Positions 4,509-32,591 of a stretch of DNA of 64,000 bases are shown here, piece after piece (within the stretch, counting starts at the first letter, position 1; each line of letters begins with the position of its first letter). The position numbers were made by a program, and so were the translations under genes. The stretch is taken from assembly GCA_966433195.1 (NCBI GenBank), contig CBJMVH010000021.1:1259-65258 (forward strand), read 5' to 3'. The DNA comes from an uncultured Ralstonia sp. (lineage in GTDB: Bacteria; Pseudomonadota; Gammaproteobacteria; Burkholderiales; Burkholderiaceae). Under the pieces are notes generated by a model. That model did not search any database. It saw nothing but the letters and a program-made list of their open reading frames with translations, and was not told the origin of the DNA.

Positions 4509-4853
4509 ATGCCCGTCGTTCATCGTTGCCTTGCCGCAGCCTGGCCTGCGGTGTTCCTGCTCGGCGTCGCCCATGCGGCCGAGGCGCCGCCCTCCAATGC
4601 ACAAGCCCGCACCTGGGCCGCATCCTGCGCGAGCTGCCATCACGCAGATACGGCGCCCGGGGCCAAGCTGGCCGCGCAGACCTTGCCATCGCTCGCCGGC
4701 CGCTCGCAGGCCGAGCTGATCGACGCGCTGCAGGCGTTTCGCAACGGCACGCGTCCCTCCACGGTGATGGGCCAGATCGCACGCGGTTACGACGATGCGC
4801 AGATCGCGGCCATTGCCGGCTGGTTGTCGCGCCAACAGCAGGTGGCCCCATGA
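4509..4853 (+). CDS. Monoheme c-type cytochrome (FccA-like subunit of flavocytochrome c)
   Basis: Signal peptide, CASCH heme motif, TVMGQIARG axial Met; overlaps next gene (ATGA). Start codon choice uncertain. Confidence 0.85.
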   Translation: MPVVHRCLAAAWPAVFLLGVAHAAEAPPSNAQARTWAASCASCHHADTAPGAKLAAQTLPSLAGRSQAELIDALQAFRNGTRPSTVMGQIARGYDDAQIAAIAGWLSRQQQVAP

Positions 4854-6145
4854 GCGAATCGCAACTGCACACGAATCGGCGCGCCATGCTGCGCGCGCTG
4901 GGCGCCACCGCACTGGTGGGCCCGCTGGCTGCCTGCGCATCGCTGTCGGGCATGCGCAATGCGCGTGTGGTGGTGGTCGGCGGCGGTTATGGCGGCGCCA
5001 CCGCGGCGAAGTACGTGCGGGTGTTTTCCGGCGGCCGTGTCGACGTGACGCTGGTGGAGCCGAATGCCGCGTTCGTCTCGTGCCCGCTGTCGAATCTCGT
5101 GCTGTCGGGCGATCGGGACATGGCGTCGATCACGGTGCCGTACGACGCGCTGGTGGAGCGCCACGGCGTGCGCTGGGTGCGCGATCGTGCCTCGGCCATC
5201 GACATCGACGCAAAACAGGTGCGGCTGGCCGGCGGTGGTGTGCTCGATTACGACCGGCTCATCCTCTCGCCCGGCATCGACTTTGTGCCGGGCGCCATCC
5301 CGGGTCTGGCCAATGCGGCTACCGCTGCGCAGGCGCCGCACGCGTGGAAGGCTGGCACGCAGACGCTCGCGCTGCGCCATCGGCTCGAAGCCATGCCCAA
5401 TGGCGGCACGGTGGCGATCAGCATTCCCCTGGCGCCGTACCGCTGCCCGCCCGCGCCGTACGAGCGCGCCTGCCTGATCGCCCACTGGCTGCAGCGCGCC
5501 AAGCCGGATTCACGCGTGCTCATCCTTGATGCCAATGACGACGTGACCTCCAAGGGCGCACTGTTCAAGCGCGTGTGGGCGCAACGTTATCCACAGCACA
5601 TCGAATATCGGCCGCAATACAACGCCGTCGATATCGATGCCACCGGCCGCGTGCTCAAGTTCGATGTGCAGGACGACGTGCAGGCGGATGTGGTCAACCT
5701 CATCCCCCCGCAGCGCGCCGGGGCCATTGCCGTGCAGGCTGGGCTGGCGACGGCCAACGGGCGCTGGTGCGAGGTGGATTTCCTCTCATTCGAATCGAAG
5801 GTGGCACCGGGCGTGCATGTGATTGGCGATGCCATCCAGACCGCGCCGCTGATGCCCAAGTCGGGCCACATGGCCAATCAGCACGGCAAGGTGGCCGCTG
5901 CCGCCGTGGTGACGATGCTCGCTGGCCACGCGCCCGATGCGCACCCGCTGTACGCCAACACTTGCTACAGCTTCACCGCGCCAGACGAGGCGATGCATGT
6001 GGCCACCGTCCACCGCTACGACGCGGCCGAGCACACCATGGTGACCGTGCCGGGGGCCGGGGGGCTCTCCGATGCGCCGTCCGCCGCCGAGGGCAAGCTG
6101 GCACAGGGCTGGAGTCGCGCGATCTGGTCCGACATGCTCGGCTAG
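4850..6145 (+). CDS. fccB: Flavocytochrome c sulfide dehydrogenase flavoprotein (FccB/SoxF-like)
   Basis: Tat signal RRAMLRALG, VVVGGGYGG FAD motif, YRCPPAPYER, C-terminal NTCYS. Confidence 0.88.
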   Translation: MSESQLHTNRRAMLRALGATALVGPLAACASLSGMRNARVVVVGGGYGGATAAKYVRVFSGGRVDVTLVEPNAAFVSCPLSNLVLSGDRDMASITVPYDALVERHGVRWVRDRASAIDIDAKQVRLAGGGVLDYDRLILSPGIDFVPGAIPGLANAATAAQAPHAWKAGTQTLALRHRLEAMPNGGTVAISIPLAPYRCPPAPYERACLIAHWLQRAKPDSRVLILDANDDVTSKGALFKRVWAQRYPQHIEYRPQYNAVDIDATGRVLKFDVQDDVQADVVNLIPPQRAGAIAVQAGLATANGRWCEVDFLSFESKVAPGVHVIGDAIQTAPLMPKSGHMANQHGKVAAAAVVTMLAGHAPDAHPLYANTCYSFTAPDEAMHVATVHRYDAAEHTMVTVPGAGGLSDAPSAAEGKLAQGWSRAIWSDMLG

Positions 6146-12915: not shown

Positions 12916-12991
<76 letters not shown>

Positions 12992-13029: not shown

Positions 13030-13408
13030 GTGCCTGGAACGCCAGTGTTGGCGCCATTCCGGGGTTTGCTGTCTTGAGCGCGCACCCTCTTGAACGGACC
13101 CAGCAGGCCCCGCAAGGCCTGAAATTTCTTCTCCATTCTCTGTTTGTCCCTTGAGCGGACAAGACTCAACTCCCTGTGTTTATGCGGGTGTTCGGGCATC
13201 CCGTTGCATTTATCAAACGGTGAGTTGGGGCGACCCAGAGAGGAAAGAACGGGCCCAACGAAGAAATGCTCTTCGCCGGACCGCGCAATCGCTCTCAAGA
13301 AAGGGCTTCCTATACTTGACAGCGACCACGTCGGCATCGGCGTGCGCCTGCTCAAAAGTGGAGTTTCCATGGGGCATAATATGGCATCTCAGCCATATAA
13401 CAGACCCG

Positions 13409-13813
13409 ATGAATCGCGTCGAAGCGCCTGCGAGCTCTGGAGCCGTATCTGTCTTGGTGACAGTGCCACGCAATCTCGCCATAAAAATTCTAAGAGGCGA
13501 GAAGCGAGTTGAATTTCGCAAAGTATGGCCGAGCCGGCGAGTACAGACCTTATGGTTCTGCGAAAAGGCCTCTGGGGGTCTTGTCGTTGCGCGGGCTGAC
13601 GTGACCAGTCTTGATGTGTTGGCACCGGCTGCGGCGTGGGAGAAATACGGTGAGGTGTCGGGAGTTGCCGAACAAGAACTTTTTGCTTATGCCGGTGAGC
13701 GGACCGCACTACATTGCGTAGTCCTGGGTACAGTACAGGCAACGCCGGGCATGCGTCTCTGTGATGTTGGCGTAGATCGCGCCCCGCAAAACTATACGTT
13801 CTTGAGCCGATGA
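13409..13813 (+). CDS. ASCH/PUA-superfamily domain protein
   Basis: VPRNLAIKILRGEKRVEFRKVWP matches the ASCH I..G.K..E.R motif; ends PQNYTFL. Start codon inferred within the longer track ORF. Confidence 0.78.
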   Translation: MNRVEAPASSGAVSVLVTVPRNLAIKILRGEKRVEFRKVWPSRRVQTLWFCEKASGGLVVARADVTSLDVLAPAAAWEKYGEVSGVAEQELFAYAGERTALHCVVLGTVQATPGMRLCDVGVDRAPQNYTFLSR

Positions 13814-15012
13814 ACTATCCATTTTCCGGGATCATCGTCAGATACCTTCGACGTCAATCGTTGAACGTGGCCGTTGCGGAGGCCGATGAGCCACCTGAAG
13901 ACCAGCTTCACGTGAATCTATGGGACATTAAGGACAAGGCTTATCTTGATATTGGGCTAATGATTTGCGAGCCGGAATCTATACGGCAGATCTGGATCGA
14001 CATTCCGTGGCACGTCAAACCAGAGCATGTTGTTGACCTTGGCCCTGGCCTGGATGGTGCGAAGATATTGACGTCAATCTTCAATGACGTCGCGCTATAT
14101 GCCGGGGTGTCAAATCAGCAATATGCGGTTGTCACGTTAGGCTCACACCCGAACCAGGGTAGTCCCTTTTTGCTTGTTCACCTGGATCCGCGGCGACTTC
14201 TTTTTTCGGAAATTGCCATCGATGCTGAAAACAAAGTTACGCGACTGCGGATTCGTTGGCCCGCATTAAGCTATTCCAACGCGAACCACAAGGATCTCAG
14301 GCGGTACATTCGCTTGCGAATAACACGGGTTCCAATGGACGCTTTTTTCTCGACATTTCGTGCCAAGGACCGGAATCTTCTGAGCTCAAGCCCCATAACG
14401 CGTTTACTTGATTTCCGAGTCAATGTGCGAAGAGGTGTCCCGGATCAAGTGCTTTTAGCGAATCCATCGCTCGAATTTCCTTCCCTGAAGAAGGTGCATG
14501 TCTTTGCAATCGTCCCCCGTGAAACTGAACTTCCATTTCAGGGGGAGGGGTACAAAGGTTGCCGTTCGTTGGAAGATGAAGAAATCTGGAACGGCTATAT
14601 CAATCTTCCTCACCGCAGTCATGCTGCGCATGGGGAATCTGTAAGAGGCTACTTAGGTTATCAGTGGACGGCGTCAAGCAAAGACAATGTTCCCGCAAAG
14701 GACTTAGTCGCGCTAGGTCGATTTGTTCATGTAACAGCATCACGTTGGACAACCACCCGATTCGTGATCGTAGTGATGCTCTTGGGCACGCTAGGGAGCG
14801 CGATTTGGGATGCCTTAAAAGTCGTTATTGGCCCAAGTGGAACGGATGCCCCCACTTTGCGGCATCTTTTGTACTGGGCGGCTGCGCCGACTGTGGCCTT
14901 AATTCTGTTGCTTATCGCTGATCGCGCAAGGGCCAGGGACTGGGCCAAGCGCGGGAAACGAGCTTGGCTTGCTAGAGTCGATGCAATTTCGTCCTGGTGG
15001 CGCAGAATCTGA
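13810..15012 (+). CDS. Hypothetical 400-aa protein with two C-terminal transmembrane helices
   Basis: Long ORF of visibly lower GC, coupled to the ASCH gene by ATGA overlap; hydrophobic segments FVIVVMLLGTLGSAIW and LLYWAAAPTVALILLLIA. Confidence 0.8.
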   Translation: MNYPFSGIIVRYLRRQSLNVAVAEADEPPEDQLHVNLWDIKDKAYLDIGLMICEPESIRQIWIDIPWHVKPEHVVDLGPGLDGAKILTSIFNDVALYAGVSNQQYAVVTLGSHPNQGSPFLLVHLDPRRLLFSEIAIDAENKVTRLRIRWPALSYSNANHKDLRRYIRLRITRVPMDAFFSTFRAKDRNLLSSSPITRLLDFRVNVRRGVPDQVLLANPSLEFPSLKKVHVFAIVPRETELPFQGEGYKGCRSLEDEEIWNGYINLPHRSHAAHGESVRGYLGYQWTASSKDNVPAKDLVALGRFVHVTASRWTTTRFVIVVMLLGTLGSAIWDALKVVIGPSGTDAPTLRHLLYWAAAPTVALILLLIADRARARDWAKRGKRAWLARVDAISSWWRRI

Positions 15013-15017
15013 GGTGG

Positions 15018-15566
15018 TTACGCTAGAGTGCCATCGCGAAACTTGGAGCGCGAAAGGTGAGAGCGCGCCGACAAATCTCCAGGGACAATCAAAGTGCCGT
15101 TGAATGCATATTCCGTGCGTTCAGTGCGATAAAGCCCGTGATGAACGGCGCCAAGCTCGAATCCGAAGTAATTAAATAGCCGCACAAATGCCGGCAAGCG
15201 TTCTTCCGCGACGCTCAACAAGGGGCGTTTCGTTTCAAGCTTTTCCAGCGACTTCTCGAACAGTCGAACACCCAATCCATAGCGGCCTTCGAAACCAGGC
15301 AAAACTCGCAGGCAGCACAACTTCTTTTCGATGCCGTCGTCCTTCAGGATGGCGAGGCCAGCAAGGAGCCCTTGCCGATACTCAACTAGGATCGATCGAT
15401 CACCAGACTGCAGTCCAGGCAACACGCGCTGAGACAGCCAAGCATCGAACCCAGGATAGAAGTCCTTTAGATCTTGCACGCGAGTCAAGACCTCAGCCAA
15501 CATACCCGAGGCCGACTCCTGATCACGAGCCAAGCTCACAACGTCTATGGTCTTGCTCATGGTCAT
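15018..15566 (-). CDS. GNAT-family N-acetyltransferase
   Basis: KKLCCLRVLPGFEGRYGLGVRLF (acetyl-CoA motif A-like), FNYFGF; RBS GAGGGG upstream. Confidence 0.8.
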   Translation of the reverse strand: MTMSKTIDVVSLARDQESASGMLAEVLTRVQDLKDFYPGFDAWLSQRVLPGLQSGDRSILVEYRQGLLAGLAILKDDGIEKKLCCLRVLPGFEGRYGLGVRLFEKSLEKLETKRPLLSVAEERLPAFVRLFNYFGFELGAVHHGLYRTERTEYAFNGTLIVPGDLSARSHLSRSKFRDGTLA

Positions 15567-15625
15567 AGTTATCCCCTCATCAGCACCGCACTTGCGTCAA
15601 ACGGCCTTTCAGACCGGTGTAACGA

Positions 15626-16081
15626 CTAGCAGTTCGTCACTATGCGCGCGCGTTTCAATTCTCTCTGTACCGCTTCGCGCACAACGTCCATGTCGAGCAC
15701 AAAGGCGAAAAGTCGTTGGCCGGAGGCGAGGTCTTCAAGGCGGCCATCATCCTGCAGAAAAACATTATAGCCATCTGTGACGAAGTACCTGCAGGCATCC
15801 AGGTCTAGGGAGCCCTTCCGCTTACGGTATGCGGCCAAGCTCTTGCGCAGGCCAAGCACTGACACACCTTGCTTCAGCAACTGCGCCATCACCCGAAGCA
15901 TCAGAACATCGGCATACAGGTAACGCCTTGCTCGCCCACGTCCCCTGGATGTGTTGCCACGGGCGATCACGATCTCATGCCGACTGAGATAGTTCACCAT
16001 ATCCAAAGACAAACCTGCTAGCCGAGCTGCTTGTTCGGCGGAGAAAGCTTCTATCGCGCCCGTGGATGATATGGTGACCAT
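15626..16081 (-). CDS. MerR-like winged HTH DNA-binding protein
   Basis: FSAEQAARLAGLS...RRYLYADVLMLRVMAQLLKQGVS...FVTDG. Start at 16081 preferred over 16120 because of the promoter position. Confidence 0.78.
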   Translation of the reverse strand: MVTISSTGAIEAFSAEQAARLAGLSLDMVNYLSRHEIVIARGNTSRGRGRARRYLYADVLMLRVMAQLLKQGVSVLGLRKSLAAYRKRKGSLDLDACRYFVTDGYNVFLQDDGRLEDLASGQRLFAFVLDMDVVREAVQRELKRARIVTNC

Positions 16082-16088
16082 TTGGATA

Positions 16089-16121
16089 CAGAGTTTAGCT
16101 CTAAACACTGAATTTGCCAAA
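16089..16121 (-). promoter_or_regulatory. Putative sigma70 promoter with overlapping palindromic operator
   Basis: Minus strand TTGGCA-N17-TAAACT; 22-bp palindrome cagagtttagctctaaacactg (16089-16110) covers the -10 box. Confidence 0.6.
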
Positions 16122-16240
16122 AAAATAGTCAGAATCCGGCAAAATTGAAGCCGCCAGGTGGCAGGAAGGAGACGAGTTAGATGTCGCGAGAGGTAAGCGT
16201 CTATGACACGTCAGGCGCCGATCATGTCACTGCAGGCTCA

Positions 16241-16765
16241 CTAGACGCGCGCGCCGAATGTGCTATCAGGTGATGTAATTCTCGATGACTTCCGGCTGGC
16301 CAGCCGGTGGCCCTGCATCTGCCAGTCCAGCGGTAATCTCCCCATCCGCACTACGTGCTCCAGGGCAATGTCGCTGTCGTCAGTGAGGCAGGCGTCAATG
16401 ACCGCAGGCGAGAGGTATGCCAGCCTAGCTATCTTGCTGACTTGCCCAAGGTCCATCCCTTCGGCAGCGGCGATCTGCGTCAGCGAATCGAACTGCTGCC
16501 CGTCAAGCAATCGCAGCCAATAGTGCGCCAAGCCGAGCGCACGCAGCAGCGGCGGATCCTGGGTTGCACCCCGGAGTCGCTTCTCGCGCTGGGATTCCAG
16601 CATGAATTGTTCGGGCGCCTCCAGCGGCGTGATGACCTGTTTTTTTGACCCACGCTTGACCAGCGTCCACGGCACGAACGTCTCTAATTGAACGCCGCCC
16701 GCAGGCGCCGGCAGCGATCGGGTGACGGGGTTCCCCAGGACCCGGCCGCGATGGTTCCCACTCAT
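16241..16765 (-). CDS. Hypothetical protein of the recombinase module (HTH-containing)
   Basis: ETFVPWTLVKRG...LGLAHYW...IAAAEGMD; paralogous motifs to the adjacent gene. Confidence 0.7.
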   Translation of the reverse strand: MSGNHRGRVLGNPVTRSLPAPAGGVQLETFVPWTLVKRGSKKQVITPLEAPEQFMLESQREKRLRGATQDPPLLRALGLAHYWLRLLDGQQFDSLTQIAAAEGMDLGQVSKIARLAYLSPAVIDACLTDDSDIALEHVVRMGRLPLDWQMQGHRLASRKSSRITSPDSTFGARV

Positions 16766-16773
16766 ACAGCCTC

Positions 16774-17136
16774 CTAGAAGCGCGCCACGATCTGGCGCTG
16801 CGCCTGCCAATCCACCGGCAGCGGATTGTGCTGGAACCACCACAGAGTCATGCTCCGCGGCTGCCGACCAGCCAGCAGTTGCGCAATGATGTCCGGTGCA
16901 AGCAAGGTCAACCGCATCAGTTCATTGACCGCCGTCGGGTGCAGCCCTTCCGCCCGCGCGATGACCGCGCCGCTTTTCATCACGCCGGTGTCCACCAGAC
17001 GCTGCCAGTAAAAGCCTCGCGCCAGCGCCTGCAGCAGCGTCGTGTCGTGTGTTGCGCGGTCATCCGCAACGACCCGCCGCGCACCCCGGCGCCGGAATGC
17101 CACTGGCACAAAGGTCTCCAGTGTGCCGCCCGTCAT
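16774..17136 (-). CDS. Hypothetical protein of the recombinase module (HTH-containing)
   Basis: ETFVPVAFRRRG...LARGFYW...IARAEGLH; ATGA overlap with recombinase. Confidence 0.72.
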   Translation of the reverse strand: MTGGTLETFVPVAFRRRGARRVVADDRATHDTTLLQALARGFYWQRLVDTGVMKSGAVIARAEGLHPTAVNELMRLTLLAPDIIAQLLAGRQPRSMTLWWFQHNPLPVDWQAQRQIVARF

Positions 17137-18521
17137 GCCTCCATCTCCACCATCTCCGCGCCGATCTCACCGGGCACGAACTCTCGGATCAGCGCGTCCC
17201 ACCCAACTTCCCGCCACTTCACCTTGAGTCCCTGCTGCTCGCCGTCGTCCACGAGGTCGACGCGTTCGATCATCAGGTTAGCGATGCGATGCCGTTCGGC
17301 GGGGAACAGCCGATCCCACACGTCATCGAGCCGCCCCATCGCCATCACCGTCGTCGCCTCGTCGACCTGGGCGCCGTTGCACCGGATGTGCTGGACTACC
17401 GCTGCCACCGCCTCCGGGCTGGTCAACACCGAGCGGATCTGCGCGACGACAGCGCCCTCGATTTCCAGTGCCGGCAGCCGCTCGTAGCGCTTGCCCGGCG
17501 CCCCGAAGCGGCTCTCGGATTTGGAGACGTAGTAGCGGTATTGGCGCCCGTTCTTGCGAGAGTAGGTCGGGTACATCCGCTCGCCGGATGGGGTATACAG
17601 CAGTCCGCGCAGCAGCGCGTCGGTACGCGACAGAATCTTTGTCTCGACAGACCGAGCGTGGCTGTCCTTCGACAGCACACCGTGCACCCGCTTCCACAGG
17701 TCCGCGTCGATGATGGCCGGATGGTTGCCCGGATACCAGCTTCCCTTGTGCGACAGTTCCCCGAGGTAGATGCGGTTACGCAGCAGCTTGGACAGGTACT
17801 TCTTGTCGATGCTGGCTCCGCAGCGCACGCGCCCATCCTGCGTGGTCCACGCCTTGGTCGTGATGCCATCCGCGGTCAGCCGCGCGGCGATTTGCGTGGG
17901 TGAGCCGATGGTCAGCATCTCTTCAAAGATGCGCCGTACCACCGCCGCTTCGGCCTCATTGATGACCAATTGGCGGTCGCGCACGTCGTAGCCCAACGGT
18001 GGCACGCCACCCATCCACAGCCCTTTGCGCTTGGCCGCCGCGATCTTGTCGCGGATGCGCTCGCCGGTGACCTCACGCTCGAACTGCGCGAACGACAGCA
18101 GCACGTTGAGCATCAGCCGGCCCATCGAGGTGGTGGTGTTGAACTGCTGGGTGACGGATACGAAGGACACGTTGTGGCGCTCGAACACCTCGACCATCTT
18201 GGAGAAGTCCGCCAGGCTGCGGGTCAGGCGATCGATCTTGTAGACCACGACGATGTCGACATGGCCGCGCTCGATGTCCGCCATCAGCCGCTTGAGCCCC
18301 GGGCGATCCGTGTTGCCACCGGAGAAGCCTGGATCGTCGTAGTCGTCGGCCACCGGAATCCACCCCTCCGTGCGCTGACTGGCGACATAGGCGTGCCCTG
18401 CCTCCTTCTGCGCGTCGATGGAGTTGAATTCCTGATCCAGCCGCTCATCGGTGGAGACGCGGCAGTACACCGCGCAGCGCTTGCGTGGCTTGGCGGAGGC
18501 GATCTGTGCGGCGCCGTTCAT
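17133..18521 (-). CDS. Large serine recombinase (resolvase + recombinase domains)
   Basis: AVYCRVST catalytic Ser, SGGNTDRPGL, YKIDRLTRS, LSFAQFERE. Confidence 0.95.
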   Translation of the reverse strand: MNGAAQIASAKPRKRCAVYCRVSTDERLDQEFNSIDAQKEAGHAYVASQRTEGWIPVADDYDDPGFSGGNTDRPGLKRLMADIERGHVDIVVVYKIDRLTRSLADFSKMVEVFERHNVSFVSVTQQFNTTTSMGRLMLNVLLSFAQFEREVTGERIRDKIAAAKRKGLWMGGVPPLGYDVRDRQLVINEAEAAVVRRIFEEMLTIGSPTQIAARLTADGITTKAWTTQDGRVRCGASIDKKYLSKLLRNRIYLGELSHKGSWYPGNHPAIIDADLWKRVHGVLSKDSHARSVETKILSRTDALLRGLLYTPSGERMYPTYSRKNGRQYRYYVSKSESRFGAPGKRYERLPALEIEGAVVAQIRSVLTSPEAVAAVVQHIRCNGAQVDEATTVMAMGRLDDVWDRLFPAERHRIANLMIERVDLVDDGEQQGLKVKWREVGWDALIREFVPGEIGAEMVEMEA

Positions 18522-18967
18522 CGGGCACCTCCCTTGGTCAGACCGAAGAAGAGTGGGCCGGACCAGTGCGTGCCGGTGATGTGCCGCGCCACGGCGGTCA
18601 GGCTCTTGAAGGTCTTGCCCTCGTATTCGAAGCCACCTTCTGCGGTGACCATCACCTTGTGCTCACGCTCGCCCCACTCGCGCAGCAGCACCGTGCCGGG
18701 CACGAAATGAAACTCGCGCGTCGGGGCGCGTTTCTGGATCTTCGAGTGCGAGGCGCCGATGCGTTCCAGGCGCTCGCGCGTGGCGGGAGCCAGCCCGCCG
18801 AAGGCTTCTTCCTGCAGTTTGTAAGCAATGCGCGATTCGACGAAATCCCGGTTCGGCTTGGCCGGGCGGTAGTTGAAGTACCGATCCCACAGCTTCCACA
18901 GTTCGGGCATGGGTGCGTGGCTCAACTCGGCGATGCGGGCGGCGACGGAGGCTTGTTTGCTGTTCAT
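18518..18967 (-). CDS. DUF2924-like protein
   Basis: IAYKLQEEAFGGL...PGTVLLREWG...KSLTAVARHITGTHWSGPLFFGL; typical recombinase partner. Confidence 0.85.
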   Translation of the reverse strand: MNSKQASVAARIAELSHAPMPELWKLWDRYFNYRPAKPNRDFVESRIAYKLQEEAFGGLAPATRERLERIGASHSKIQKRAPTREFHFVPGTVLLREWGEREHKVMVTAEGGFEYEGKTFKSLTAVARHITGTHWSGPLFFGLTKGGAR

Positions 18968-19158
18968 CACAACGTGTCCTGTTGAGAGGGGGTTGTATGA
19001 ACGCGCTGGTCGGGCACAAAGCCAAGTCCAACCGCACTCTCTGCGCTGGCAGGGGCGGCAAGCGTGCGCACGATGGCGGAGGCCAGGATTGCGGTGATCC
19101 CGGCGGCGCGCTCGCCGGCAGGCATTGCGGAGGGGCAGGGTAGTTCGAAGGACTTCAT
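18967..19158 (-). CDS. Small hypothetical protein
   Basis: MKSFELPCPSAM...; stop overlaps the DUF2924 start. Confidence 0.55.
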   Translation of the reverse strand: MKSFELPCPSAMPAGERAAGITAILASAIVRTLAAPASAESAVGLGFVPDQRVHTTPSQQDTL

Positions 19159-19336
19159 GGCAGCATCGGGGAATGAAACTGCCATGGATGGTGGTGCCAA
19201 TCGTCCGAAGCGGATAGCAACGGAGGGTAATGGGCCGCACGGTGGCTCTCGCCAAAAACAACGAGGACGAATGTCCTATCAAGGACAACGGCGGGGCGAT
19301 TCGTCATCGCCCGGACTACCCGTCAAATCAAAGCCT

Positions 19337-29872: not shown

Positions 29873-29943
29873 TCATTTCCATGTGGCTCGCGCCGGGACA
29901 CGTTCCCCGCGAGCCGTTTCCATTTGGGAACCCGAAACAGAAC

Positions 29944-31347
29944 ATGCTCAACGTCGAGTACCGCAAGGTCACGGCGCTGATTCCCTACGCCCGCAATCCC
30001 CGGACCCACAGCGAGGAGCAGGTGGCCCGGATCGCCGCCAGCATCGTCGAGTACGGCTGGACCAACCCAATCCTGGTCGACGGCGAGAATGGCGTGATTG
30101 CGGGCCACGGGCGCTTGGCCGCCGCGCGCAAGCTTGGCATGGAGGTTGTGCCGGTGATCGAACTGGCCCACCTGTCGCCAACACAAAAGCGCGCGTTGAT
30201 CCTGGCAGACAACCGCATCGCACTTGATGCGGGCTGGGATGAGGAACTGCTGGCGCTGGAGTTTGCGGAACTGGTCGATGCCGGCTACGACCTGGCGCTG
30301 ACCGGGTTCGATGAGGCAGAGATCGACGCCCTGCTGGCTGAAGACGTGAGCGACGACGAGGATGCCGCCTGCTCAGAAGAAAGCGAGCCCGATGCAGCGG
30401 ACGACGTGCCTGCCGCATCGGCAGTGCCGGTGTCCCGTCCTGGCGACGTATGGGCGCTCGGTGGGCACCGCCTCATTTGCGGCGATGCCACCGATGCCAG
30501 CGTCATTGACGCCTTAATGGCTGGTCAGCAAGCCGACCTGTGCTTCACGTCGCCGCCCTACGCCAACCAGCGCAACTACACCACAGGCGGCATCGCCGAT
30601 TGGGACGTATTGATGCGCGGCGTGTTCGGCAATGTGCCGATGGCGGCCGACGGCCAGATTCTCGTCAATCTCGGGTTGGTCCACCGCGACAGCGAGGTCG
30701 TGCCGTATTGGGATGCATGGCTTGGCTGGATGCGCACGCAAGGTTGGCGGCGCTTCGGCTGGTACGTCTGGGACCAGGGGCCGGGCATGCCGGGCGACTG
30801 GCAAGGCCGTTTAGCGCCTTCCTTCGAATTCGTCTTCCACTTCAACCGGGAGGCCCGCCGACCGAACAAAACCGTGCCGTGCAAGTACGCCGGCCAGGAC
30901 GAACACTTGCGCGCTGACGGCACGTCGACCTCGATGCGCGGCAAGGACGGCGCCGTCGGGGGCTGGACGCACAAGGGGCGGGTGACGCAGGACACCCGGA
31001 TTCCTGACTCGGTGATCCGCGTGATGCGGCACAAGGGCAAGATCGGCCGCGACATCGACCACCCGGCTGTGTTCCCCGTTGCGCTGCCGGCATTCCTGAT
31101 CGAGGCGTACTCGGATGCCGGCGACATCGTGTTCGAGCCCTTCGGCGGCAGCGGCACCACCATGCTGGCCGCCCAGCGCACCGGTCGCCTGTGCCGCAGC
31201 GTCGAGATCGCGCCTGAATACGTCGACGTCGCCATCAAGCGTTTCGAGCAGAACTTCCCCGAGGTGCCGGTGACGCTGTGCTCGACCGGACAGACCTTCG
31301 CGGCTGTTGCGGCCGAACGCCTGGCGGGCGTGGAGGTGACGCAATGA
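29944..31347 (+). CDS. ParB-N domain + N4/N6 DNA methyltransferase (beta class)
   Basis: PYARNPRTHS...IAGHGR; TSPPY motif IV before EPFGGSGTT motif I; HPAVFP. Confidence 0.92.
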   Translation: MLNVEYRKVTALIPYARNPRTHSEEQVARIAASIVEYGWTNPILVDGENGVIAGHGRLAAARKLGMEVVPVIELAHLSPTQKRALILADNRIALDAGWDEELLALEFAELVDAGYDLALTGFDEAEIDALLAEDVSDDEDAACSEESEPDAADDVPAASAVPVSRPGDVWALGGHRLICGDATDASVIDALMAGQQADLCFTSPPYANQRNYTTGGIADWDVLMRGVFGNVPMAADGQILVNLGLVHRDSEVVPYWDAWLGWMRTQGWRRFGWYVWDQGPGMPGDWQGRLAPSFEFVFHFNREARRPNKTVPCKYAGQDEHLRADGTSTSMRGKDGAVGGWTHKGRVTQDTRIPDSVIRVMRHKGKIGRDIDHPAVFPVALPAFLIEAYSDAGDIVFEPFGGSGTTMLAAQRTGRLCRSVEIAPEYVDVAIKRFEQNFPEVPVTLCSTGQTFAAVAAERLAGVEVTQ

Positions 31348-32591
31348 CGGCGTCGTGGCTTGCGGGCAGGATCGAGCACTGGCCGATTCAGCGGCTGGTG
31401 CCCTACGCGGCAAACGCCCGGACGCATTCCGACGAACAGGTCGCGCAGATTGCCGCCAGCATGGTGGAGTTTGGATTCACGAACCCCATCCTGGCGGGCG
31501 CCGACGGCATCATTGTCGCCGGCCACGGGCGGCTCGCTGCTGCCACGAAGTTGGGGCTGGCGACGGTGCCGGTGGTCGTGCTCGACCACCTGAGCCCCAC
31601 GCAACGGCGCGCCCTGGTGATCGCGGACAATCGCATCGCCGAGAACGCCGGCTGGGACGAAGCGGTGCTGCGCGCCGAACTGGCAGCGCTCGATGCGGCG
31701 GACTTCGATCTGGCGCTGACAGGCTTCGATGCCGATGCACTGGCCGATCTGATGGCTGGTGACGAAGCCGATGGGGACGATCAGGGAAAGGATGACACGG
31801 AGCTGCCGGCGCCCGAGGTGCCGGTGTCCCGGCCGGGTGACGTATGGGTGTTGGGCGAGCACCGGCTGCTCTGCGGCGATGCCACCGTGGCCGAGAGCTA
31901 CGAGCGGCTGCTGCAGGGTGAGCTAGCGGACATGGTCTTCACGGACCCGCCGTACAACGTGAACTACGCCAACACGGCCAAGGACCGGCAGCGCGGTAGG
32001 AGCCGCGCCATCCTGAACGACAACCTGGGGGGCGGCTTCTACGATTTCCTGCTGGCGGCGCTCACGCCGATGGTTGCCAACTGCCGAGGGGCCCTCTACG
32101 TGGCGATGTCCTCCAGCGAACTGGACGTGCTGCAGGCAGCGTTCCGCGAGGCCGGCGGCCACTGGTCCACGTTCATCATCTGGGCCAAGAACACCTTCAC
32201 GCTGGGACGCGCGGACTACCAGCGGCAATACGAGCCGATCCTGTACGGCTGGCCCGAGGGTGCGCAGCGTCACTGGTGCGGTGCTCGCGACCAGGGGGAC
32301 GTTTGGCAGATCAAGAAGCCGGCCCGGAACGACCTGCACCCGACAATGAAGCCGGTGGAATTGGTCGAGCGTGCCATTCGCAATTCGAGCCGTCCTGGTG
32401 ACGTGGTGCTCGATGCGTTCGGTGGTTCGGGGACGACACTGATTGCGGCGCAGAAGACGGGACGTGTGGCGCGGCTGATCGAACTCGATCCCAAGTATGT
32501 CGACGTCATCGTGCGTCGCTGGCAGGAATGGACGGGCGAGCGGGCTACGCGTGAGAGTGACGGTGCCGGTTTCGTTTCAACCGCAACGTGA
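31344..32591 (+). CDS. Second ParB-N domain + DNA methyltransferase (beta class)
   Basis: PYAANARTHS...AGHGR; TDPPY; HPTMKP; DAFGGSGTT. Confidence 0.92.
   Translation: MTASWLAGRIEHWPIQRLVPYAANARTHSDEQVAQIAASMVEFGFTNPILAGADGIIVAGHGRLAAATKLGLATVPVVVLDHLSPTQRRALVIADNRIAENAGWDEAVLRAELAALDAADFDLALTGFDADALADLMAGDEADGDDQGKDDTELPAPEVPVSRPGDVWVLGEHRLLCGDATVAESYERLLQGELADMVFTDPPYNVNYANTAKDRQRGRSRAILNDNLGGGFYDFLLAALTPMVANCRGALYVAMSSSELDVLQAAFREAGGHWSTFIIWAKNTFTLGRADYQRQYEPILYGWPEGAQRHWCGARDQGDVWQIKKPARNDLHPTMKPVELVERAIRNSSRPGDVVLDAFGGSGTTLIAAQKTGRVARLIELDPKYVDVIVRRWQEWTGERATRESDGAGFVSTAT

Follow-up and report, generated by a model that had tools for sequence, protein, structure and literature searches.

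The DNA analyzed here is a 64,000-nt stretch from an uncultured Ralstonia sp. (the window; all coordinates are window positions). Immediately past a tRNA-Ala gene, open reading frame (ORF) calls gave four intact ORFs in low-GC DNA, encoding an ASCH protein, a 400-amino acid (aa) membrane protein of an unannotated family (P400), a stand-alone GNAT acetyltransferase, and a MerR-like helix-turn-helix (HTH) regulator. It is probable that these four genes form one conflict system, a minimal branch of the (PIN)-GNAT-EVE/ASCH family that does without GNAT-EVE itself. The locus contains the following features:

12916–12991, plus strand: tRNA-Ala(cgc), called by ARAGORN; the variable region starts right at its 3′ end
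13313–16140, no strand: mobile four-gene cassette of 2.83 kb, delimited by the extent of DNA homology and set off by a contrast in GC content at third codon positions (GC3)
13313–13408, plus strand: 5′ region of the ASCH–P400 operon, likely promoter region, from conservation with a metagenomic copy (L028)
13409–13813, plus strand: ASCH protein, 134 aa, divergent PDC-M11B/ZmASCH-type, PUA-like
13810–15012, plus strand: P400, 400 aa, unannotated family
15018–15566, minus strand: stand-alone GNAT acetyltransferase, 182 aa, paralogous to the GNAT domain of GNAT-EVE (PDC-M11A)
15626–16081, minus strand: MerR-like HTH regulator, 151 aa from ATG 16081; ORF open to TTG 16120
16092–16120, minus strand: promoter-like site of the MerR-like/GNAT operon, TTGGCA-17-TAAACT, from a consensus scan
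16093–16106, no strand: perfect palindrome GTTTAGAGCTAAAC, candidate operator of the MerR-like protein, unique in the window
17133–18521: serine recombinase

The genes form two convergent units. The P400 start codon overlaps the ASCH stop codon (ATGA at 13810–13813), and the stop codons of GNAT and P400 are 5 bp apart, with 15013–15017 between them. GC content is 0.52–0.55 in the cassette compared with ~0.65–0.68 in the flanks, and GC3 of the four genes is 0.52–0.60 compared with ~0.8 in both the chromosome and the neighboring prophage. This layout agrees with that reported in the initial annotation, as does the location between the tRNA gene, which ends at 12991, and a recombinase module, in which the serine recombinase and a DUF2924 gene span 17133–19288, beyond the cassette. 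Comparison with the L028 copy (86% DNA identity) gave dN/dS values of 0.15 for ASCH, 0.04 for P400, 0.12 for GNAT, and 0.11 for the MerR-like gene, which indicate purifying selection on all four.

For the MerR-like protein, ATG 16081 is a more likely start than TTG 16120, because homologues in the same position are 150–152 aa long and the promoter-like site occupies 16120–16092. The ASCH frame is also open upstream, to TTG 13151 (220 aa; extension 13151–13408); the homologues and the cassette border at 13313 show it to be noncoding. The segment 13313–13408 is conserved with L028 and partly with a second locus, L012 (the GGCATAATATG..CATATAAC block), and not with the Burkholderia copies. A consensus scan of this segment called no promoter.

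Co-occurrence, gene order, and mobility

For a census of gene neighborhoods, P400 loci were drawn from genomes, assemblies, viral contigs, and metagenomes, and all ORFs were scored with purpose-built hidden Markov models (HMMs). This gave 65 non-redundant loci, of which 33, those flanked by 1.5 kb or more on each side, were used. A small GNAT gene and an ASCH gene were found beside P400 in every case (33/33 each). PDC-M11A, the GNAT-EVE protein, was present in 29/33, an AAA_17 ATPase in 13/33, and a MerR-like gene in 9/33. Hosts included Methylophilus, Pseudomonas, Caballeronia, Paraburkholderia, Pseudorhodoferax, Neisseria, Burkholderia, and Ralstonia, besides metagenomes. At least five gene orders or orientations were observed, with arrowheads giving the direction of transcription:

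ASCH> P400> <GNAT <MerR: the window, Ralstonia, Burkholderia
(MerR>, optional) M11A> ASCH> P400> GNAT>: the commonest form
P400> <GNAT <ASCH <M11A <AAA17: Pseudomonas, Methylophilus, viral contigs
P400> ASCH> GNAT>: Neisseria subflava
P400> <GNAT, then M11A> ASCH> AAA17>

The same pairing was seen in two remote family members recovered by exhaustive search, one with P400> GNAT> accompanied by <AAA17 <ASCH and the other with P400> GNAT> ASCH> in DNA of 41% GC. In every arrangement, gene junctions overlap or sit a few bases apart. That co-occurrence is complete even though the gene order has changed repeatedly strongly supports a single functional unit, and the functional linkage anticipated in the initial annotation was thereby borne out. 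The four-gene set itself recurs as a unit in Ralstonia, Burkholderia, and the metagenomic contig. Judged from these sequences, the conserved core appears to be a trio: a ZmASCH-type ASCH protein (a predicted nucleic-acid binder), membrane-anchored P400, and the stand-alone GNAT. The trio was found without GNAT-EVE in the window, in Neisseria, and in loci L039 and L098.

The two transcription units are convergent, and a regulator followed by a GNAT gene recalls the order of GNAT/ribbon-helix-helix (RHH) toxin–antitoxin pairs. Two unrelated modules brought together by chance, a TacAT- or AtaRT-like type II pair of MerR antitoxin and GNAT toxin beside a separate ASCH–P400 pair, could produce such a picture. 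Given the census, however, this explanation is close to refuted and hardly credible. GNAT lies next to P400 in 33/33 loci, often with translational overlap in one operon, and the MerR-like gene is missing in 24/33 and, in those GNAT-EVE-type operons that have it, stands three genes away from GNAT. By the same 24 absences, the MerR-like protein is not a dedicated antitoxin of the GNAT.

Several variant loci were noted. The minimal trio of Neisseria subflava (L016/L017) occurs on many oral-metagenome contigs, and several motif residues of its P400 are altered (DVRINESRWLP, SRSLTQEDIW, LGYHW). In L013 and L038, the P400/GNAT pair is followed by PIN-GNAT-EVE (490–509 aa), ASCH, and AAA_17, in that order. 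In L013, P400 is immediately preceded by a short ASCH-like remnant (tblastn, 4684–4854), perhaps left over from an ASCH> P400> arrangement like that of the window.

The borders of the cassette were defined by comparison with L028, a metagenomic Logan contig in which P400 is 94% identical. Window positions 13313–16140 align with L028 142–2969 at 86% nucleotide identity, and the flanks are unrelated on both sides; in L028 the cassette lies beside a primase-helicase element and not beside the prophage of the window. The four-gene form is located between a GGDEF gene and Mrr/HNH/integrase genes in B. cenocepacia and B. vietnamiensis, and after soxB, as in the window, in R. pseudosolanacearum. It thus occupies at least three different chromosomal sites. 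Homology shared with 29 other species of the genus extends no further than window position 12991, the last base of tRNA-Ala, and the DNA that follows the tRNA gene in these relatives maps to another contig of the source genome. The cassette and prophage therefore fill the variable site at tRNA-Ala. No tRNA-derived direct repeat marking an island end was found in the window, and repeats flanking the cassette amounted to short, chance-like matches. Sampling of 401 genomes from the order and 30 from the genus turned up P400 in one genome each time, namely the source genome.

The prophage, which reaches from 16.2 kb to 59 kb or beyond, encodes a Sak4-like protein, a primase, two ParB-methyltransferases, a terminase, a major head protein, a tape measure protein, and tail proteins; from its gene content it looks complete. 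Its ParB-methyltransferase genes are two tandem ParB-like/DNA methyltransferase fusions at 29881–32591 on the plus strand (488 and 437 aa, phrog_498).

A cassette that adjoins a complete-looking prophage here and another element in L028 might serve the mobile element, by superinfection exclusion, counter-defense, or addiction on behalf of the adjoining prophage or island. The excerpted text of Bell, Wolf & Koonin (2020, BMC Biol 18:159, PMC7641849) suggests a mobile-element role for prophage-borne GNAT-EVE. Three IMG/VR viral contigs carry the system, and GNAT-EVE/ASCH pairs occur directly after cI in lambdoid phages. The GC3 contrast with the prophage points the other way, as do homology to L028 that stops at the cassette borders, with unrelated elements next to it, and several chromosomal loci without phage genes within 4–6 kb. 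Service to the element is thus considered unlikely. On the grounds of its composition, and of homology limited to the cassette itself, the cassette is regarded as a unit of its own rather than prophage cargo. The cargo status assumed in the initial annotation could not be demonstrated, with GC3 unlike that of the prophage and the 94%-identical P400 found beside a different element.

The surroundings of the system were surveyed by a scan of 96 neighboring ORFs from 27 P400 loci. Defense and toxin genes comprised type IIG restriction–modification, Drt4, Drt6, AbiK/UG reverse transcriptases, TIR effectors, PDC-S06/S54/S64, PDC-M48A, mad2, RES, and HipA; mobile-element genes comprised integrases, HNH, and the portal and terminase proteins of phages. 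Defense genes are usually found among such neighbors, which are given here as a listing and not an enrichment statistic, and they fit the conflict setting that had been proposed.

Features of the encoded proteins

The ASCH protein falls below the Pfam cut-off (18.7 versus 21.2 bits). It matches the PADLOC PDC-M11B models PDLC04424 (1.4e-13) and PDLC04425 (1.2e-12) over nearly its full length, and phrog_3136 at 8e-12. When a 27-member ASCH profile was searched against the PDB, it matched 5GUS (ZmASCH) at 1.2e-21 over positions 5–126 of 127, and the YqfB structure was absent from the matches even at an E of 10. Residues Lys-32, Glu-35, Arg-37, Trp-77, Gly-85, Tyr-94, Pro-126, and Gln-127 are invariant across the set. 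By these comparisons the protein is ZmASCH-like, not YqfB-like. ZmASCH (ZMO0922; PDB 5GUS/5GUQ) binds nucleic acid and weakly cleaves single-stranded RNA with Mg2+ in vitro, with Tyr-47, Lys-53, and Ser-128 important for binding and cleavage (Kim et al. 2017, Sci Rep 7:12303); that study covered no link to a GNAT or a membrane protein. Homology extends over the full length, and the motifs GxKxxExR and PPQS are common to ZmASCH and the ASCH family of the window. Most PDC-M11B-type members retain the key ZmASCH residues (IYAT..GK..PPQS); in contrast, these residues are not kept in the window protein and its closest relatives, and FCEK..GL/GR..PQN takes their place in the window, L028, L012, L009, L031, and L039.

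The initial annotation had cast the ASCH protein as an eraser of the YqfB type. In a scheme of this kind, the GNAT would write an N-acetyl mark, either on RNA in the manner of N4-acetylcytidine (ac4C) or on aminoacyl-tRNA, the ASCH protein would erase it, and P400 would be the effector. Such a scheme could draw on the constant co-occurrence of GNAT and ASCH genes (33/33) and on the precedent of YqfB, an E. coli ASCH protein that acts as an N4-acylcytidine amidohydrolase with a Thr-Lys-Glu triad and an Arg oxyanion hole (Lys-21, Thr-24, Arg-26, Glu-74; PMC6972931); a preprint also reports that other ASCH proteins erase tRNA ac4C. The window protein shares with YqfB the ASCH fold and the Lys and Arg of the K-x-x-T-x-R segment. 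The position of the nucleophile Thr-24, however, is Glu in every member (K32-x-x-E35-x-R37), as placed by identical spacing rather than direct alignment, which argues against a YqfB-type amidohydrolase. With the PDB profile search favoring ZmASCH and the GNAT toxins AtaT and TacT lying outside the 50 best structural neighbors of the window GNAT, we find the writer/eraser scheme rather improbable, and neither the YqfB-type eraser nor an AtaT/TacT-like GNAT was upheld.

The stand-alone GNAT is weak in Pfam (below threshold) and matches phrog_13728 at 3.5e-23. An AlphaFold2 (AF2) model with a mean predicted local distance difference test (pLDDT) score of 90.6 consists of one GNAT domain with a disordered tail. 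Foldseek aligned the model to PaiA, 8osp, SpeG, and RimI at E ~1e-7; the nearest PDB structures, at a TM-score of ~0.6, were 8osp, 4e2a, 2r7h, PaiA, streptothricin acetyltransferases, SpeG, RimI, and NatD, and AtaT, TacT, and similar toxins were absent from the 50 best. Among PDB sequences, RimI alone was matched, at E 0.33. The acetyl-CoA loop EGRYGLG (within LPGFEGRYGLG) is kept in 47 homologues together with 19 invariant positions, so that both the fold and the β4-α3 acetyl-CoA motif (Q/R-x-x-G-x-G/A) of the GNAT superfamily are present. When the small GNAT was compared with GNAT-EVE by hhalign, the GNAT part alone aligned, at 97.4% probability and E 1.3e-11, and the alignment covers the distinctive pre-core helix L-x-x-x-YP-x-F-x-x-W. 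On this alignment, the small GNAT and the GNAT domain of GNAT-EVE are paralogues.

TacAT, AtaRT, KacAT, and ItaRT are type II toxin–antitoxin pairs of a GNAT and an RHH protein. The window resembles them in that the gene ahead of its small GNAT encodes a DNA-binding protein, for which an autoregulatory operator is likely. It differs in its regulator, which is MerR-type and not RHH and is optional, in the constant tie of the GNAT to ASCH and P400, and in the absence of those toxins from the 50 best structural neighbors of the window GNAT.

The polyamine, antibiotic, and protein acetyltransferases among the closest GNAT structures, and a Neisseria locus that lies among core genes, could instead fit a physiology outside conflict, such as nucleoside salvage or a membrane-associated acetylation with an envelope component or a small molecule as the substrate. 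The distribution of the system is very patchy (1/401 and 1/30 genomes), though, and its composition foreign; it is embedded in GNAT-EVE/ASCH operons among defense and mobile genes, with no conserved transporter or biosynthetic partner. A housekeeping role of this kind is therefore regarded as quite improbable.

For P400, no match was found in Pfam, PADLOC, NCBIfam, or PHROGs, and its profile matched no PDB sequence. The AF2 model (pLDDT 90.5, predicted TM-score 0.84) has ~22 β-strands in residues 1–310 and helices at 312–340, 350–369, and 372–399. Foldseek returned TM-scores of at most 0.29, and the top PDB entries, β-sandwich domains of M1 aminopeptidases and OST1 at 0.28 or less, were treated as no match; a search of BFVD gave nothing below E 1e-3. 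Likewise, hhalign found nothing in common with GNAT-EVE, tblastn over 50,697 phage records found nothing, and no description of the family was found in the literature or databases searched. Hydropathy analysis identified two transmembrane (TM) segments, at about 314–340 and 350–372, consistent with the two-TM protein of the initial annotation, and the last 30 residues carry 10 Lys/Arg. Since no signal peptide is present and the C terminus is basic, an N-in/C-in hairpin with the β domain in the cytoplasm is predicted. The model would then comprise a cytoplasmic β-rich domain (1–310), a two-TM hairpin, and a basic C-terminal helix; distant homologues have the first TM helix only.

A homologue search yielded 95 relatives of P400, and an exhaustive profile search extended the family to at least 1,086 representatives of clusters formed at 50% identity, with 288 scoring below 1e-30. 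Across this wide family, His-34, Asp-47, Gly-49, Pro-66, Phe-91, Tyr-166, Arg-168, Arg-170, Asn-205, and Tyr-284 are invariant, and Asn-36, Trp-38, Asp-76, Asn-92, Arg-208, Arg-252, Trp-260, Tyr-263, and Trp-286 nearly so, the conserved residues being polar and aromatic. The TM1 motif G326-x-x-G329-x-x-x-W333 is kept among closer relatives. All of the family motifs (HxNxW, DFRxNVRRGxP, CRSLEDExxW, LGYQW, and the TM motif GxxGxxxW) are present in the window protein.

The MerR-like protein matches Pfam MerR_1 at 2.3e-6 (28.1 bits, cut-off 21.6) and consists of the HTH followed by ~65 C-terminal residues of no recognized type. MerR_1 genes also head many GNAT-EVE-type operons. The palindrome GTTTAGAGCTAAAC sits between the −35-like TTGGCA and the −10-like TAAACT, and has no second copy ahead of ASCH. 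In five loci from Ralstonia and Burkholderia, whose flanking DNA has diverged, the block GTTTAGAGCTA is invariant; the two Burkholderia copies differ from the palindrome by one base. An N-terminal MerR-type HTH and a dyad in the promoter spacer are both features of the MerR family, and the palindrome is a plausible candidate for the autoregulatory operator of the MerR-like protein. The autoregulated HTH proposed earlier is to this extent plausible. As it accompanies 9 of the 33 loci, the protein is considered an optional, system-specific regulator.

Relation to GNAT-EVE/ASCH operons and possible mode of action

Where the trio is accompanied by a ~355-aa protein, this protein matches PDC-M11A at ~1e-130, and the ASCH protein there matches PDC-M11B at 1e-48. 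In PDB profile searches of PDC-M11A, the N-terminal GNAT domain alone was matched, to PaiA and Naa50. Long forms have an added N-terminal PIN-motif-like segment and, in these forms only, a weak C-terminal match to Pfam EVE (3.3e-4 and 0.1). No significant similarity was found by hhalign between the ASCH protein and the C-terminal half of GNAT-EVE.

Bell et al. (PMC7641849) describe (PIN)-GNAT-EVE operons almost all of which encode an ASCH protein, often with an AAA_17 ATPase, and credit such operons to Iyer et al. (2013, NAR 41:7635). In the same excerpted text, PIN-GNAT-EVE is associated with restriction–modification and other defense systems, GNAT-EVE is common in β- and γ-proteobacterial prophages, and no GNAT-EVE module is said to have been characterized. 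The window cassette has much in common with these operons: an ASCH partner of the same family (PDC-M11B), a GNAT homologous to the GNAT domain of GNAT-EVE, occurrence in prophages and defense islands, and, in the 29 loci with PDC-M11A, a P400 trio embedded in just such an operon, often with AAA_17. It differs in lacking GNAT-EVE, its 182-aa GNAT being a single domain rather than a fusion to a C-terminal EVE, and in lacking AAA_17, which is optional in the published operons. It adds an EVE-less GNAT, P400, and the MerR-like gene, no mention of which was found in the excerpts of Bell et al. (PMC7641849), the only work in the literature searched in which the term GNAT-EVE was found.

The question of whether the system already bears a name has a divided answer. 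The ASCH protein matches PDC-M11B and so has named kin, and the window GNAT matches a single M11A model at 1.9e-4 over its GNAT part. The two-gene PADLOC definition of PDC-M11 (PDC-M11A next to PDC-M11B) does not apply, because the cassette has no PDC-M11A. The initial annotation had proposed an undescribed system. That claim does not hold for the GNAT-EVE/ASCH kind as a whole, which is already known, as a prediction only (PDC-M11), and of which the cassette is probably a branch (PMC7641849). It does hold, within the literature covered, for this branch, where the obligate pairing of P400 with a stand-alone GNAT, the free-standing cassette with its regulator and candidate operator but without GNAT-EVE, and the size of the P400 family are new.

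GNAT-EVE + ASCH operons, with or without AAA_17, were found without P400 or the small GNAT in two other genomes of the order and on another contig (C19) of the source genome. As such operons exist, the P400 + small-GNAT pair is an add-on to a subset of them. The operon on C19, at about 66.2–68.7 kb (L094 8214–10667), is a complete set of PDC-M11 type and encodes PIN-GNAT-EVE (496 aa), ASCH (155 aa), and AAA_17 (179 aa); by tblastn and HMM searches it holds the only PDC-M11A of the genome, and it might cooperate in trans with the window cassette. It is flanked by large unannotated ORFs of 924, 521, 322, 387, and 845 aa. Another genome (L092; G370, C1:3796–3800 kb) has both forms of the family head to tail in one locus, GNAT-EVE + ASCH as the short one and PIN-GNAT-EVE + ASCH + AAA_17 as the long one.

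A two-gene relative is present in the lambdoid Escherichia phage PhiR47_2 (L095; PV340567.1 5404–6832), where a pair annotated as GevT toxin and GevA antitoxin directly follows cI. GevT matches the GNAT-EVE profile and GevA the ASCH profile, and the pair is mobile-element cargo. The slot is the one held by rexAB in phage lambda. Unlike the window cassette, the GevT/GevA pair has neither P400 nor a second GNAT.

From the gene set and its relatives, we infer the following mode of action. The MerR-like protein would act at the palindrome of the promoter spacer to repress the GNAT operon to which its own gene belongs, and the translationally coupled ASCH and P400 proteins would form a membrane-tethered complex. 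Upon phage or other invader stress, the GNAT would use acetyl-CoA to acetylate an RNA-linked or nucleotide substrate bound by ASCH, and P400 would bring about growth arrest or membrane damage in the style of abortive infection or a toxin–antitoxin system. The cytoplasmic, Arg-rich β domain of P400 would be its sensing or partner-binding part, and the GxxGxxxW TM helix its membrane part. The particular order of these events is doubtful, and an anti-phage role is itself presumed.

Several observations weigh against one conflict system of this kind. The Neisseria copy lies between the core genes hrpA and parA/gidB, with no obvious island. The nearest structural neighbors of the GNAT acetylate polyamines, proteins, and antibiotics and give no pointer to an RNA substrate, and the window ASCH has Cys, Leu, and Asn where ZmASCH has Tyr-47, Lys-53, and Ser-128. 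The label of effector or sensor for P400 is a guess, because the protein has no recognizable fold or domain. PDC-M11 is a candidate system that appeared in the literature searched (two preprints) as an annotation label only, with no tested family member found, and the names GevT and GevA come from record annotation, with no relevant paper found in the same literature. In our judgment, the constant trio, its kinship with GNAT-EVE/ASCH operons, and its neighbors still make a single conflict system the probable reading.

A bolder and tentative proposal is that ASCH, P400, and the stand-alone GNAT make up a self-sufficient acetyl-CoA-dependent immune or toxin system, with P400 a new class of membrane-tethered executioner or sensor and the PDC-M11 operons elaborations of this core. 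If true, the mechanism of the entire GNAT-EVE/ASCH family could be worked out on its smallest natural version, the window cassette. GNAT-EVE/ASCH modules are widespread in prophages and defense islands and have been predicted since 2013, with no tested example found in the literature and records searched. The present comparison shows the P400 family and the second GNAT to be obligate partners of each other and of the ASCH protein, and the trio to exist without the hallmark GNAT-EVE in a compact 2.8-kb cassette that carries a regulator and candidate operator, a small, clonable entry point to an unexplained family. This argues that annotation tools, with their two-gene definition, overlook part of the system and fail altogether to find cassettes like that of the window.

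Outside the cassette, two overlapping paralogous ORFs (200 and 120 aa) occupy 16241–17136 on the minus strand, immediately upstream of the serine recombinase gene. Each has a match to phrog_14161 (“recombinase”), at 1e-26 and 2e-40, and they appear to be duplicates of one small accessory gene in the recombinase module.

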